A stretch of DNA of 63,993 nt, filler included, from Fonticula-like sp. SCN 57-25 (taxonomy: Eukaryota), in the NCBI GenBank assembly GCA_001724245.1. It is 7 parts of 7 records of this genome, joined end to end, with 100 filler letters (N's around TTAATTAATTAA, not from the genome) between each part and the next. Parts side by side here need not be neighbours in the genome. Positions count along the whole stretch, not along the records: positions 1 to 8,319 come from MEDX01000306.1; positions 8,420 to 16,715 come from MEDX01000307.1; 5 more parts are not named here. One strand, 5' to 3'. A program made the position numbers and the translations under genes. Every line of letters begins with the position of its first letter. Position 1 is the first letter of the stretch. Of this stretch, positions 3,313-15,397 are shown one piece after another. Below the pieces are notes generated by a model. That model had not been told where the DNA came from. It did not search any database and was given only the letters and a program-made list of their open reading frames with translations.

Positions 3313-4255
3313 TTAGAAAATACGGACCGGGCGGCCCATGGTGCTCTTGACGAAGAGCGAGCGGACGTTCTGCCAGTTCTTCTTCAGGAGGGAGACGAGG
3401 AAGTTGACCGAAAGAGCAATGTTCTGCACAAGCTGCTCCTCAGTGAGCTCGACGTTGCCGACGGCAACACCGAGGCAGAGAACCTTCTTGAGCTGGAACT
3501 TGACGGTGGCCTTGATCTCCTCCGACTTGGCGGTGAGCGAGTCCGAGTGCGACACCGGGGTGGGGAACTTGCCGGCCTTGTTAAGACCGGGGCCAAGGAT
3601 ACGGGGAATCTGCTTGATGAGCGACTCCGAGGCGAGGAACGCATCGTACTTCTTGGCTGCATTACAACGTCAGTCAGCATGAAAGGAGAACGGCCAGCAG
3701 AACGCACCAAGCTTCTTGATGAGCTTCTTGTTCTTGTTGAGCTTCTTGAGGTCATCAGCAGTCATGCTCTCGAGACCAGCCTCCTTGGCCTGATCGACGT
3801 GAGCGGCATCGGCAAGGACGCAGATGCTCATGCGCGGGCGGGGAACGGTCGGGAGACGCATGGTACCGCTGAAACGCTTGTCCTTGGCGGTATCATAGTT
3901 CTTGAGGCCGACCTGGAGCTCAACAGTCTCAACGAAGTTGCGCTTGTTCTCCTTGGAATCGGCAAGGATCTTGCGGACCGAGTCGGTCAGGAGCTCACGG
4001 GAGATCTTGCTGAAACGCAAAAAGCGGAATGTGAGATGTCAAGGTCATTCAGACATGGCTAGCAATGAGCAAGAGGGCTCGAAAACAACACGGATGCCGG
4101 CTGTGGCGTGGATGTCTGGCAGATGGCGCTAGGCATCCCGTGGATGCGCGCGGCCATCCGCGGATCATCCCATCCACGCCAGCTTAACCATCGGACAAAG
4201 AGACAGCATCCCGCCCACCTACAGAGCATATAGCCTGACTCTCGGCGTACCTCAT
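3313..4255 (-). CDS. RPL10A: 60S ribosomal protein L10a (uL1); exons 4255-4251, 4009-3708, 3656-3313
   Basis: MSKIS...[17 protein letters not shown]...[15 protein letters not shown]...[12 protein letters not shown]. Confidence 0.97.
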
Positions 4256-4566
4256 GGTTCTGAACGACGCTTACAACCGCTGGCGACGGCTGTGTAGGGG
4301 CGCGGCGTGGTAAAAGGGACTGAGCTTGAGCGATGCACGCACCCTCTTGAGGCACCTGTGCACAAGTTGTGACAGGTGGATATTGATTGAACATGACGCA
4401 ATATGGGATGATTGCAACAGGGTCACTATGGACAATATTACGGACATTGGCGTGCAATGCACGGACGCTGAGAACCAGAAAATGCACCCAACTGACTATG
4501 GGCATCCAGGCTCTGCCTAAAAAGTGGGACAAACAATTTGGTTTCAAATTACATTGTACAACGCGT

Positions 4567-5918
4567 CTACTCGTCCTTGGCGAGCTGGGCGAGGAAAGCA
4601 GCCTTGCGCTGCTTCACGCGGTCCTTGCGCTGCTTGGTGTTGCGGCGGCTCTCGTTGAAGCGCTTCTTGGTCTCAACCTTGGCAACCTTCTTGGTGTGCG
4701 TGGGGTTGGCGCGGATAGCGGCGTGGGCCTTGGCGTAGATGTCGGCAATGTTGTCCTCGTTGACACCGTTCTTGAGGAAGCGAGAGAAGCGGGTCTTGTA
4801 GGCATCCTCGTCCTCGTCCTTGAGGAGCGTCATGTACTCGGCAATGTGCTCGCCAAAGATGCGGGAGCGGAGAACCTCGGGCTCGAAGTTCTTGGCCTCG
4901 GGGTCGTAGCCAGGGAAGCGCTTCTCGCTGTGGGGGATGTTCAGGCCACCGTCAACGGCACCCTTGAGGACACCGAAGATACGGGCACCAGTGGTGGCGT
5001 AGGCCAGACCAATATCGAGGTTGGCAAGGAAGGGGCGGGGGCCATCATCGATCTCCTCAATGTTGAAGATCTCGCCATCAGCCTCCTCGACACCAACATA
5101 CTTGTCGTCGAGCTTGAGCTGCTTGAGCAGGCGGCGAGCGCAAAGCAGGCCGGTGGCATAGCACGAGGCATAGTTGGTGAGACCAACCTTGACGCCGTAG
5201 CGGGGGAGCTCATGGGCATAGGCGGCGGTCATGGTGCGGTCACCCTCGATCGAGGCGTACACAACCTGCGTGATCACATCACGGTTGGTGAGGCGAACGA
5301 CGAAGCGGTACTTGGGGCTGTGGTACTTGTTCTTGTCCTGGATAACAAGGCGGCGGCGGGCATAGTAGTCGGTCTTACCCTCTGTCAAACACGAGGACAG
5401 CACGTAAGCGAATGGCTACGGATGGGGAGAGTGACACGAAAAGGATCGGGGGAGCGCAATGGCAAACGCCATTGCCAAAGACAATAAGAAAGAGGCAAAG
5501 ATCAGATAGGAGCGAAAGGTGTAATCGACATTATGTGTTCGGTTGAACTATGTCATCATCATAGTAGGCCTCGCATGCATAGGACATCATCAACAATTGA
5601 GAAACTAGACGTACCGCGGCGACGACGGTACTTGACCTGGTAGCGCTTGAAGTACGCCTTGTTCTTGACAATCTTAACGAAGCCCTGCACAGAATCACGT
5701 CAGTACACGCTCGGATGATGGATTGTGCAAAAAACAGCAAGTATGGGCATTGGAGGATGGGTGCGATGCTCCGGCGCCACCATCCTCAACACCATCCATC
5801 CTCTACTACGCGATATTCCATCGAGCATCCAACCACAAAAGCACGCCAGACATCCCACAGACAGTTCAACAAACACCGCAGCCCCTCAGCAGGAGCATTG
5901 GACACCAGCGCGCACCAT
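4567..5918 (-). CDS. RPL5: 60S ribosomal protein L5 (uL18); exons 5918-5916, 5684-5615, 5381-4567
   Basis: [36 protein letters not shown]...[10 protein letters not shown]. Confidence 0.97.
5492..5572 (-). ncRNA. Intronic box C/D snoRNA, U80/snR60-like, in RPL5 intron 2
   Basis: Minus strand GAGGC-ctact-ATGATGA(C)-tga-CATAGTTCA-a-CCGA(D')...CTTTCGCTCCTAT-CTGA(D)-tcttt-GCCTC; terminal stem; both guides complementary to conserved LSU rRNA (UGAACUAUG; AUAGGGGCGAAAG with one G-U pair). Confidence 0.9.
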
Positions 5919-6150
5919 CGTTCCGGTTCGGACTTGCCGTAGGATGCGAGGGTCGGGTCAGGCGAGAGAGGCCGAACGATGTTGAATCGCGAGGTGTCAA
6001 GTTTGATTCTAGAAATCGTCTCATGATCATGATTTCAACATCATGGGGTAATATTGAAATTGTGAGACGATTTTTGTGAACTTGATCGGTGGCTGCTGCT
6101 TTGGACACACTCTCTCACTACCTCACGTACCCGGTGCCGCATCGTCGAGA

Positions 6151-13564: not shown

Positions 13565-13952
13565 ATGGTGCGGCTGGGCAGAGGAAAGGGGGACGGCGGG
13601 CCGCGATGGCGCGTTACTGACGCTCTGTGGGTGTGCTTGTAGGCGCTGGAGGACCGCCTGGTGGGGCTTTTGATGCTAGCTGTGAGCACGACGGTTTTCC
13701 TCTACTATAGCGTGTGGGTGCTTGTCCTGGTGCGTCGCTCGGTTTGCCGCGCTGATCTGGTGGGCTAACGCGAATGAACCGTGATCCCTGCAGCCCTTTG
13801 TCGATCAGAACCAGGCGATTCACCGCTTCTTCCTGCCGTCCGAGTACGCCATCATCATCCCGAGCGTTCTGTTGGTCGTCGGGTTGACGTGCGTCGGCGC
13901 GTTCCTCGCGTTCGTCATGATCAAGTCGCAGAGAAAGGCAAAGACGGCCTAG
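13565..13952 (+). CDS. DPM2: Dolichol-phosphate mannosyltransferase subunit 2, 3 exons
   Basis: M|ALEDRLVGLLMLAVSTTVFLYYSVWVLVL|PFVD...FFLPSEYAIIIP...KKxx-like basic tail. Confidence 0.92.
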
Positions 13953-14227
13953 TTCAGCCACCTTCAAGTTACAGCAGCGGACAGTACTCGTCCCGGCACC
14001 TATTTAATTGTACTATTACGAATAAGAAAGTTGATATGAATGCATCTTTTTTGCCTTATGATTCACTCTAATGATCCATTACGGCGCTCAAGTGTGCTTC
14101 AAGCATTCAATACATAAAGGCCTTTCGAATGCAGCTTCAAATATGGCTTTCATGTAATAAGCGGTCAAGTTTTGGGTTTTTGGGTATATATTGAGGTTGG
14201 CGAAGACAAAGCCATGCCGACCATCGC

Positions 14228-14958
14228 TTAACGGTAGCGGTGGAAGACGGTGGCGTTGCGGCGCTTGTACGAGGCCTTGCGGGAGCCACCAATGGTCTGG
14301 TGGAAGCCGTGGCCCTTGCCGAGACCGCGCGAGCTCTTGCCGGCGCCGGTGAGACCGCGGAGCTCGCGGTGCTTCATGACGTTGCTGCAGATCCAGTTGA
14401 TGCGGGGATCGCGGCGGATGGCCTTGTGGCTGGGGTCGACGAGGATGACCTCATAGAACTTGTAGAGGGCATCCTGGTTGATCCAGTACGAGTTGAGCAC
14501 GCGGAGGTTACCGCAGACGCGGCCAGCGCGCTGCTCAGCGAGAGCGCGGTGGTTGCGGCGGGGCTTCAGCTGGTTAACACCATGGGTCTTGGGCTTGCCA
14601 TAGGTCTGACCCTTGATGACGGGGCGCTTGCGGCCACCGCGGCGGACACGCACGCGGTAGACAACAAAGCCCTGCTTGGCCTAGAAAAGAAAAGAGAGAA
14701 TGCGGTAAGATTACGGCGATTACGAAAGCGATCGGGACAAACCTTGTAGCCGAGGCGGCGAGCCTTGTCGGGGCGGCTCGGGCGCGAGGCGCGGTGCACA
14801 GCCGAAAGCTGGCGCAGCTCCCAGCAGCGCACGCGCAGAATGAAGCGCAGCACATCAGACTGCTTCTTCTTGTAGAGCTCCTCAAGATACTTGTAGGCTA
14901 ACGGGGGACATGAGTACACGCGTCATCCAAAAGTCTCGAGAAGTAACGTACCGCCCAT
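14228..14958 (-). CDS. RPL15: 60S ribosomal protein L15 (eL15), with 5'UTR intron 14961-15213
   Basis: [18 protein letters not shown]...[11 protein letters not shown]...LRVLNSYWI...HRELRGLT. Confidence 0.97.
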
Positions 14959-15397
14959 TTCTGTGAAAAGAAGAACGCAAAAAGGCAAGCGGCAAAGCGG
15001 ATGCAAGGAAACGCGCGTGGGTTAGCGACCGGATGCTAGACCACAAGGGATGGGAGGATGGATGGGATCGTGGCACGGATGGCACGGGGCAATCCGTGCA
15101 GCACTCTCGACCAAAAAAACACAAAAACAAGGGATCCAACTCAACGGCACATCCATCCACGCCTAGGATGCACCGACGCCCCGTTCCCCGCCCTCAGAAC
15201 CGCCGCAACGTACCTTCAACAACCTCCGCCTCGAGATGGGATGTGACTAAAAGAGGTCGAGCACCGTGCGGATGCGCGAACCCAAATCACAGTATGCAAA
15301 CTCGATTGTAGTTTGCATACTCATCTCTGATTGGTCGCTTACAAACCGTCAGCGTTTGTCGTTTCCCGCCGTTTCCTGCCGCAGAGATCCTGGCGCC

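Follow-up and report, generated by a model that had tools for sequence, protein, structure and literature searches.

The first introns of four ribosomal protein (RP) genes, RPL10a, RPL5, RPL14 and RPL15, each carry a dense array of the exact pentamer GGATG and its reverse complement CATCC, with GGATG on the 5' side and CATCC on the 3' side, and these arrays are probably a shared control element. We put the probability at roughly 40% that they are putative binding-site arrays for one factor, located in promoter-proximal introns and arranged so that the transcript folds back. Within the window, i.e., the whole stretch of 63,993 nt that was analyzed, the GGATG/CATCC element is real and specific to RP first introns. 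All four RP genes in the window have an array, and the evidence base consists of four genes on two contigs.

The co-regulation of some 80 ribosomal protein genes varies between lineages and, to our knowledge, is known in detail in few model organisms only. The arrays constitute a very clean candidate signal from an uncultured eukaryote, an exact pentamer enriched about 15-fold and set in convergent arrays in first introns, and, should they prove to be regulon-wide, RP co-regulation would have been solved here in a new way. Their geometry also makes site content and RNA pairing separable, which would help to tell the DNA-level from the RNA-level roles of long RP introns.

Gene models and pentamer arrays

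The Pfam profiles Ribosomal_L1, L5e, L14e and L15e matched in the exons adjoining the first introns of RPL10a, RPL5, RPL14 and RPL15, respectively. The boundaries of all four first introns were read off the DNA sequence, and the chosen boundaries rebuild conserved RP N-termini; the translation of RPL5 exon 2, for instance, agrees with the RPL5 N-termini of Trichoplax, Allomyces and Fonticula. Exon 1 of RPL15, upstream of 15213, was placed by splice-site consensus alone. The initial annotation had described these first introns as long (230-320 nt against a norm of about 50 nt) and RPL15 as lying on a different contig from the other three genes. Both hold: the measured lengths (Table 1) compare with a median of 57 nt for the short-intron candidates in the window (n = 44, heuristic), and N spacers occupy 8320-8419.

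Table 1. Features of the four RP loci, with positions in the window.
Feature	Position	Strand	Detail or basis
RPL10a (uL1) first intron, 241 nt, after ATGAG	4010..4250	-	sequence; Ribosomal_L1 in next exon
RPL10a intron sites, 8 GGATG/CATCC copies	4092-4211		RNA order GGGGCGCC
RPL10a 11-bp perfect inverted arms	4104-4114/4171-4181		TGGCGTGGATG / CATCCACGCCA; 100% complementary
TTTGCGTT near RPL10a intron 3' end	4014..4021	- (sense)	preceded by CATTCCGC
Two motif copies upstream of RPL10a (region 4406..4507)	4406-4410; 4503-4507	+; -	
RPL5 (uL18) first intron, 231 nt, immediately 3' of ATG	5685..5915	-	sequence; N-terminus match
RPL5 intron sites, 7 GGATG/CATCC copies	5713-5855		RNA order GGGGGCC
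RPL5 13-nt arms	5753-5765/5775-5787		85%; include 8 bp annotated initially
RPL14 (eL14) first intron, 323 nt, immediately 3' of ATG	6154..6476	+	sequence; exon 2 translation; Pfam
RPL14 intron sites, 9 GGATG/CATCC copies	6184-6370		RNA order GGGGCCCCC
RPL14 18-bp perfect inverted arms, 62 nt apart	6263-6280/6343-6360		GGAGGAGTGCGCGGATGG / CCATCCGCGCACTCCTCC; 100% complementary
Central palindrome in RPL14 intron	6283-6292		GGATGCATCC
TTTGCGTT in RPL14 intron	6377..6384	+ (sense)	11 nt after last CATCC (GCATCCGCTCAATTTGCGTT)
RPL15 (eL15) inferred 5'UTR intron, 253 nt	14961..15213	-	boundaries from splice-site consensus only
RPL15 9-nt exon with ATG, directly 3' of inferred intron	14952-14960		
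RPL15 intron sites, 9 GGATG/CATCC copies	14999-15170		RNA order CGGCCCCCC
RPL15 9-nt arms	15056-15064/15150-15158		100% complementary
RPL15 inner 11-nt arms	15073-15083/15089-15099		91%; include 8 bp annotated initially
TTTGCGTT in RPL15 intron	14974..14981	- (sense)	downstream of GCATCCGC
Other upstream motif copies	5942-5946; 15239-15243; 15270-15274		
Variable places listed in first introns	5695, 5712, 5731, 5749, 6180, 6444; insertion at 6418		

The four first introns hold 33 copies of GGATG/CATCC in 1048 nt (31.5/kb), compared to 135 copies in 62417 nt (2.2/kb) for the rest of the window, and the motif density reported for them is thereby corroborated. Counted over the whole window and both strands, GGATG occurs at 168 sites versus 126.4 ± 10.9 in shuffles, none of 100 shuffles reaching 168. 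The pentamer is the top enriched 5-mer of the four introns (33 observed versus 2.24 expected; p = 3e-27), and under single-linkage clustering with a 60-nt gap, clusters of at least six sites occur in the four RP first introns only; outside them, no stretch of 250 nt anywhere in the window has more than four copies. The short-intron candidates (n = 44) contain nine copies in 2747 nt, without polarity or a G-to-C gradient. The second intron of RPL5, similar in length to the first (about 233 nt), has a single site; its length is explained by the C/D snoRNA that it hosts (snR60/Z15 match). The rival possibility that the motif is equally dense in other long introns or intergenic DNA was checked within the window and does not hold. 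DNA upstream of the genes is mildly enriched (five copies in 684 nt, 7.3/kb versus 2.2/kb; Poisson P = 0.018), and no promoter word is common to all three upstream regions.

GGATG precedes CATCC in 56 of the 59 pairs, which none of 20000 permutations reaches, and in 36 of 38 pairs when tandem copies are merged (p = 1.6e-4). This polarity, noted initially as GGATG mostly in the 5' half and CATCC mostly in the 3' half, is the same in all four introns. The sense strands carry 16 GGATG and 17 CATCC in total, but single introns are unbalanced: RPL5 has five GGATG and two CATCC, RPL15 two GGATG and seven CATCC. Background composition does not account for the polarity, because the 3' half of the RPL14 intron has a masked skew of +0.09 and yet contains five CATCC and no GGATG. 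Nucleosome-positioning and polar-roadblock readings of the converging arrays were also considered; the site spacings have no evident 10-bp periodicity.

The word itself is sharp. The eight transition variants tested, four of them wobble-compatible, total five copies versus 33 exact ones; the wobble-variant asymmetry counts (3 vs 1 and 0 vs 1) are too small to have power. The form is nGGATG(G/C), with G or C at +1 in 13 of 16 GGATG and 15 of 17 CATCC copies, and TGGATG is the commonest version (12/33). Flank profiles are similar in both orientations (16 G-type, 17 C-type). About 12 of the 33 copies lie within short (GGAT)2-3 runs, while the majority are isolated and have differing flanks. A sharp word with similar flanks in both orientations fits a sequence-specific factor, and the alternative offered initially, oppositely oriented transcription factor sites, likewise suits this sharpness and the flanks common to the introns. 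The introns had also been said not to look alignable, which is nearly right. No blastn match among the introns, or between them and the rest of the window, exceeds 13 nt apart from an intron's own arms, and there are no near-identical copies of the introner-like or MITE type in the window; nonetheless, three introns do share TTTGCGTT on the sense strand near the 3' end, and these are three of the window's five copies. In addition, different introns have 11-12-mers such as GAGGATGGATGG in common, in one orientation or the other, and the arrays of different RP introns are mutually complementary, perfectly up to 12 nt, as for GAGGAUGGAUGG in RPL5 versus CCAUCCAUCCUC in RPL14 and RPL15.

Inverted arms, folding and related sequences

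Every arm listed in the initial annotation (18, 11, 9, 8 and 8 bp) is present. Perfect arms of 8-18 bp occur in all four introns and are found in the MFE structures, in which the 18-bp stem of RPL14 grows to about 26 bp. When compared with motif-preserving shuffles, the RPL14 arm is exceptional (0/300 reach 18) and the RPL10a arm marginally longer (0.01), with values of 0.09 for RPL15 and 0.43 for RPL5; half-against-half duplex energy is unremarkable in all four introns by such shuffles. Sense-strand folding z-scores versus shuffles are -2.23 for RPL10a, +0.12 for RPL5, -2.48 for RPL14 and +0.72 for RPL15. The fold-back reading is supported in part: RPL10a and RPL14 fold better than shuffles, RPL5 and RPL15 do not, and a folding advantage as a property common to all four introns is not supported. 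The antisense strand of RPL10a folds less well than the sense strand (z = -0.73), whereas for RPL14 and RPL15 antisense folding is equal or better by z-score. The structural distance from 5' splice site to branch point is no shorter than in shuffles in three introns, so that this measure does not discriminate, while that of RPL15 was matched by 0/50 global and 0/50 half-shuffles. The flanks of sites in different introns are no less complementary than those of sites in the same intron: Watson-Crick flank extension of at least 5 is seen in 9/213 between-intron and 2/57 within-intron pairs (Mann-Whitney p = 0.52). With G-U allowed, an extension of at least 3 occurs in 21/57 within-intron versus 47/213 between-intron pairs (Fisher p = 0.019), which hints at RNA-level selection. 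At gathering score, Rfam has no match in the first introns when the whole window is searched, and down to E <= 1 in 3900-6600, which covers the RPL10a, RPL5 and RPL14 introns, it matched RPL5 intron 2 only (snR60/Z15).

The host is an uncultured, deep-branching, opisthokont-like eukaryote from metagenomes, for which a search of a protein atlas yielded no taxonomic placement. The intron sequences recur in contigs that three other studies obtained (X2, X3, X7), which represent strains that are about 99% identical. At least seven places in the first introns vary, and all those listed (Table 1) lie outside the pentamers, with about one pentamer overlap expected by chance, too few for the comparison to have power. 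A further set of contigs (X15), guessed to be RNA from a relative less than 90% alike, has none over or across any first intron; one of its joints (3657>3710) corresponds approximately to RPL10a intron 2, which is 51 nt long. When metagenomes were scanned with RPL10a exon 2, 80 loci were recovered with a best identity of 62-68%, none of them a close relative, and therefore no orthologous intron could be aligned. These 80 loci (540 kb) contain one cluster of at least five sites, which overlies the coding sequence of an unrelated gene, and arrays are absent at 38 distant metagenome RPL10a loci, where the 600-nt upstream regions have 0-4 sites. A scan of genome contigs with RPL5 found no relative. 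Searches of the open-access literature turned up no account of RP introns with GGATG arrays.

Candidate explanations for the arrays

The preferred reading is a shared RP cis-element in which seven to nine copies of nGGATG(G/C) span 110-175 bp, starting 30-60 nt into the intron. The word would be bound by a single sequence-specific factor, in the simplest case a double-stranded-DNA-binding protein, and the promoter-proximal first intron would serve as an enhancer-like platform that co-regulates the RP genes, the introns being long because they house the arrays. Since the arrays converge (GGATG 5', CATCC 3'), the intron transcript can pair with itself in a nested manner, an arrangement that may have been kept because a collapsed intron of 230-320 nt would splice better or more controllably where introns measure about 55 nt. 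The rarity of wobble-compatible variants argues against selection on pairing alone, which would tolerate such variants. A plain DNA-site model, on the other hand, makes no prediction of polarity, so a second selective force is needed and the prior is lowered. Counting against a DNA-site reading, the copies are mainly intronic (31.5/kb) as opposed to upstream (7.3/kb), which an RNA-level element predicts as well. A doubtful elaboration is that the word is one two-level switch for the whole RP regulon: the factor would read GGATG in DNA or nascent RNA, fold-back of the converging arrays would mask the sites, and RP transcription and splicing would be coupled via one motif. A bolder variant of this switch builds on the complementarity, up to 12 nt, between arrays of different RP introns: RP pre-mRNAs would pair with one another in trans, and their retention or processing would be joint.

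Less probable than the factor-binding array, though it stands close to it, is a purely RNA-level element in which GGAUG (5') and CAUCC (3') would be a redundant 'Velcro' by which the long intron folds back, either promoting splicing or forming a structure by which a regulator, a protein or an RNA with affinity for the word or the helix, switches RP pre-mRNA splicing jointly, e.g., during starvation. The polarity is exactly the layout that lets all pairs nest (56/59; 36/38 merged), the arrays are confined to introns, and the 18-bp and 11-bp arms run beyond the word. RPL10a (z = -2.23) and RPL14 (z = -2.48) fold well, the former better in sense than in antisense (-0.73), G-U-allowed extension is greater within introns than between them (p = 0.019), the strand-specific TTTGCGTT sits in the sense strand of three of the four introns, and the zipper stems and autoregulatory structures of yeast RP introns provide a precedent in the cited sections of PMC12350175, PMC12311795 and PMC13232506. 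Pairing alone, however, could do without one identical pentamer in four unrelated introns and without scarce wobble variants, and the copy imbalance in RPL5 (5 G to 2 C) and RPL15 (2 G to 7 C) speaks against an RNA-only element. So do the missing energy advantage in RPL5 and RPL15 and of the duplexes in every intron, the antisense folding of RPL14 and RPL15, an ordinary structural distance in three introns, and long perfect arms too distant from the splice sites for yeast zipper-stem geometry. It is improbable that the arrays are a functionless by-product, formed in long and heavily transcribed introns as (GGAT)n-like microsatellites grew and sequence was duplicated in inverted orientation or copied by template switching. 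The copies within (GGAT)2-3 runs (about 12/33), an 18-bp RPL14 arm that could be a recent inverted duplication and the absence of a thermodynamic signal in RPL5 and RPL15 are in line with such an origin, but one word in four unlinked or unrelated introns, clustered in no other non-coding DNA of the 64 kb, is not. Moreover, no array is present in intron 2 of RPL5, a gene whose first intron has one, the majority of copies stand alone and differ in their flanks, the polarity is identical in all four introns, and their lack of alignment otherwise makes a common mobile origin unlikely. We consider it very unlikely that the introns form hairpins from which small RNAs are made, or which RNase III cleaves so that unspliced RP pre-mRNA is destroyed: the RPL14 stem (18 bp perfect, about 26 bp when folded at MFE) would suit this role, but perfect stems reach only 8-11 bp in the other three introns and Rfam gave no match in the first introns.

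Comparison with known systems

In other eukaryotes, RP genes typically have an intron at the start codon or close beside it. The introns described here also lie at or adjoining the start codon, unlike introner-like insertions, which arise at new positions. Introner-like elements and MITE-derived introns are near-identical copies that are long and have a predicted stable fold-back. The present introns resemble them in exceeding the genome norm in length and in their predicted fold-back, but share no alignment longer than 13 nt. In the Mer1 regulon of yeast meiosis, a short intronic splicing-enhancer word is common to a functional gene set, the splicing of which is co-regulated; Mer1 relies on one copy on one strand, whereas arrays in both orientations are found here.

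Zipper stems and autoregulatory structures are described for Saccharomyces RP-gene introns in the cited parts of Rogic 2008 (PMC2536676) and Rangan et al. 2025 (PMC12350175), and intron-structure studies cover yeast RPL7B, RPL18B and RPS22B (PMC12311795, PMC13232506, in the parts cited). As far as these accounts go, the yeast structures, like those here, differ from gene to gene in their sequence and resist alignment, but they have no shared sequence word, while one exact pentamer builds all the stems here. The definition of a yeast zipper stem given in PMC12350175 sets a total linker of 42-85 nt from stem to 5' splice site plus branch point. Unlike those stems, the perfect arms in the present introns are separated from the splice signals by about 70-110 nt: with consensus-inferred branch points, the total linker is about 199 nt in RPL14 (arms at sense 110-127/190-207, ACTGAC branch-like site at about 297) and about 130-140 nt in RPL10a (arms at 70-80/137-147 of 241), both outside that range. 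A further difference from the yeast stems is that the folding advantage is present in two of the four introns only.

At the DNA level, RP-regulon motifs are bound by telomere-type Myb proteins, namely Rap1 and Tbf1 in yeast (Lavoie et al. 2010, PMC2834713), and the plant telo-box is another such motif (PMC3212954), according to the cited sections. As these sources present them, Rap1, Tbf1 and telo-box sites share with GGATG that a short word is over-represented in the RP genes of one lineage and rewired between lineages, and Tbf1 sites are likewise clustered, with unconstrained orientation and spacing (PMC2834713). The C. albicans Rap1 motif as given there, CATCCANACANCAATAG, starts with the GGATG word, the rest of it being absent here; this resemblance may serve as a lead only. 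The hosts of Rap1 and Tbf1 are yeasts, from which the present host is far removed. In the accounts cited, Myb-type RP motifs lie upstream of genes and lack convergent polarity, whereas the GGATG arrays lie inside the first intron and converge.

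Density and convergence of the GGATG/CATCC arrays

The first introns of four ribosomal protein (RP) genes, RPL10a, RPL5 and RPL14 on piece 1 of the window and RPL15 on piece 2, contain 33 copies of GGATG or its complement CATCC in 1048 nt (31.5 per kb), against 135 in the remaining 62417 nt (2.16 per kb). This word is their top 5-mer (33 observed vs 2.24 expected, p = 3e-27), and the next-ranked 5-mers are overlaps of it. In the whole window, clusters of at least six sites occur in these four introns only, and the densest 250-nt stretch elsewhere holds four copies. The enrichment reported in the initial annotation therefore stands, on an evidence base of four genes. 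Short-intron candidates hold 9 copies in 2747 nt. The second intron of RPL5, as long as the first, has one copy and owes its length to the C/D-box snoRNA housed there (Rfam snR60/Z15; 41 bits, exactly the gathering score; E = 8.7e-5).

Read in RNA sense, the 16 G-type (GGATG) and 17 C-type (CATCC) copies are ordered GGGGCGCC in RPL10a, GGGGGCC in RPL5, GGGGCCCCC in RPL14 and CGGCCCCCC in RPL15. G lies ahead of C in 56 of 59 G/C pairs, as high a value occurring in 0 of 20000 label permutations, and in 36 of 38 pairs once tandem copies are merged (p = 1.6e-4), which bears out the earlier remark that GGATG lies mostly in the first half and CATCC mostly in the second. As this layout is its own reverse complement, the polarity shows that the arrays converge, not which strand matters. 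It is not due to background skew, because the 3' half of the RPL14 intron has a masked skew of +0.09 yet carries five CATCC and no GGATG; in ordinary short introns a G-to-C gradient is absent (skews -0.06 and -0.01).

Both types share their flanks (consensus nGGATG(G/C)), with T the most frequent base before GGATG (12/33). Eight transition-variant words, four of which would keep pairing via G-U, total 5 copies vs 33 exact ones. Flank complementarity is no higher within an intron than between introns: Watson-Crick extension of at least 5 is found in 9/213 between-intron vs 2/57 within-intron pairs (p = 0.52). Extension of at least 3 with G-U allowed gives a weak within-intron excess (21/57 vs 47/213, p = 0.019). 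Words of 11-12 nt recur across introns in either orientation, and no alignment between introns exceeds 13 nt, in line with the view that the motif is common to them and the sequence is not alignable.

Gene models, flanking DNA and lineage

The exons adjoining the four introns match Pfam L1, L5e, L14e and L15e, and splicing was modelled at the coordinates of the initial annotation. The 5' sites agree with the local consensus GTRCGY, derived from 44 heuristic short-intron candidates (median 57 nt). These candidates mostly start with GTGCGY or GTACGY (C replaces the usual A at +4) and have a branch-like CTGAC/CTAAC 10-25 nt ahead of the 3' site; ACTGACGTGAT is common to the branch regions of RPL5 intron 1 and RPL14 intron 1. 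No RNA contig was found across any of the four first introns, so that they, and the RPL15 intron especially, are inferred.

Other short elements accompany these genes. TTTGCGTT has five copies in the window, of which the first introns of RPL10a, RPL14 and RPL15 carry one each on the sense strand; the first intron of RPL5 has TTTTGCAC in its place. Upstream of the genes lie five further GGATG copies in 684 nt (P = 0.018), and no word of at least 7 nt is common to all three upstream regions. Two perfect palindromes are also present upstream, and the 9-mer CGCTTACAA, confined within the window to the DNA immediately upstream of RPL10a and RPL15, is a possible core-promoter or start-site word.

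Coordinates and particulars of the features
Feature	Position	Strand	Particulars
RPL10a first intron	4010-4250		ATGAG, 241-nt intron, exon 2 then reads KISRELL...; folding z sense -2.23, antisense -0.73
RPL5 first intron	5685-5915		ATG, 231-nt intron, exon 2 product matches the RPL5 N-termini from Trichoplax, Allomyces and Fonticula; z +0.12, +1.06
RPL14 first intron	6154-6476		ATG, 323-nt intron, exon 2; z -2.48, -2.37
RPL15 first intron	14961-15213		253 nt in 5'UTR, then 9-nt exon bearing ATG; z +0.72, -0.48
RPL15 putative micro-exon	14952-14960	-	AAATGGGCG, start codon; flanked by the 253-nt 5'UTR intron and one of 53 nt
RPL10a arms	4104-4114/4171-4181		11 bp
RPL14 arms	6263-6280/6343-6360		18 bp
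RPL5 second intron	about 5382-5614		233 nt
snoRNA	5490-5574	-	
TTTGCGTT	4014-4021	-	3' part of intron, downstream of CAT(T)CCGC
TTTGCGTT	6377-6384	+	same
TTTGCGTT	14974-14981	-	same
Palindrome, RPL5-RPL14 divergent promoter	6013-6073		AAATCGTCTCA/TGAGACGATTT, 11-bp arms, 39-nt spacer
Palindrome upstream of RPL15	15291-15321		AGTATGCAAACT/AGTTTGCATACT, 12-bp arms, 7-nt spacer
9-mer CGCTTACAA	4268-4276, 15336-15344		sense TTGTAAGCG
GTAATATTG	4433, 6048		RPL10a upstream region; RPL5-RPL14 spacer
Insertion, run X2	4427		11 nt, between RPL10a and RPL5
Insertion, run X3	6126		10 nt, RPL5-RPL14 promoter
Kinase ORF	23122-25050	-	Tyr/Ser-Thr type, RCC1-like region
Cysteine-rich ORF	47998-49161	-	hormone-receptor (HRM), Sushi, Ephrin-CRD-like matches
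N spacers (paired runs)	8320-8419, 16716-16815, 25052-25151, 41324-41423, 49589-49688, 57846-57945		between the seven pieces; genomic adjacency across them not to be assumed

The best DNA match is a bioreactor metagenome, which may be the source of the sequence. Contigs from runs of three other studies (X2, X3 and X7) contain the same region at ~99% identity; the four introns are nearly invariant across them, and the strain differences include the two insertions tabulated above. The RPL5 main exon has a single relative at 75% identity, the best named ones reaching 60-63% (Trichoplax, Allomyces, Fonticula, a chytrid and two EukProt entries, called ichthyosporean from their identifiers). The host is a eukaryote of uncertain placement. 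Among the other gene products of the window are a TKL-type kinase, a cysteine-rich protein of HRM/Sushi-like type, SYF1 and RAVE; the HRM/Sushi/Ephrin-CRD and kinase/RCC1 domains are unusual in fungi, a hint that this opisthokont-like lineage is non-fungal or branched off very early. A metagenome scan returned 80 RPL10a loci (best identity 62-68%; 540 kb), with one cluster of at least five sites, unrelated to RP genes. In 38 of them, chosen as the longer ones with no prior check that each had 600 nt of upstream sequence, the stretch of 600 nt preceding the match had 0-4 copies. Given these loci without arrays, the element is not general among eukaryotes.

Folding, interpretation and known systems

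All the inverted arms listed in the initial annotation are present. In shuffles that treat each intron half separately and leave the pentamers intact, the RPL14 arm was equalled in 0/300 cases and the RPL10a arm is longer than expected (0.01), while those of RPL15 (0.09) and RPL5 (0.43) are not beyond expectation. Half-against-half duplex energies are unremarkable in all four introns (z -0.83 to +1.71, pentamer-keeping shuffles), and the structural distance from 5' site to branch region is not below shuffles in three of four, that of RPL15 being reached by 0/50 shuffles in each mode. Taken together with the folding z scores, these results mean that thermodynamic fold-back is not common to all four introns.

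The pentamer is exact, occurs in both orientations (33 copies in all) and has common flanks, which points to recognition by a single sequence-specific factor, the simplest candidate being a duplex-DNA-binding protein. The convergence of the arrays and the length of the RPL14 and RPL10a arms speak for a role of transcript pairing as well. From these sequence patterns we favor, at a probability of about 0.4, arrays of sites seated in promoter-proximal introns, whose orientation would be under a constraint to let the long intron fold back. The fold-back RNA proposed earlier finds partial support, in RPL14 and, marginally, in RPL10a, where arms exceed shuffles; RPL5 and RPL15 show no folding advantage. 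A mechanism at the RNA level only is rated as the closest alternative, somewhat less probable than the favored reading. A common word of slightly greater length accounts for arms of 8-12 bp, leaving only the 18-bp arm in need of another cause. A small-RNA or RNase III hairpin appears very improbable. That the exact, polar copies are a mutational by-product is improbable, if less so.

In the open-access literature, we found no description of GGATG arrays of this kind in RP introns. Yeast zipper stems share their setting with the four introns but have no common word, and the perfect arms here fall outside the total linker of 42-85 nt stated in PMC12350175. RP-regulon motifs recognized by Rap1 or Tbf1 follow the same logic as the arrays, and the C. 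albicans Rap1 motif given in PMC2834713 starts with CATCCA; Rap1/Tbf1 sites are, however, upstream and non-polar, whereas the arrays described here are intronic and convergent.
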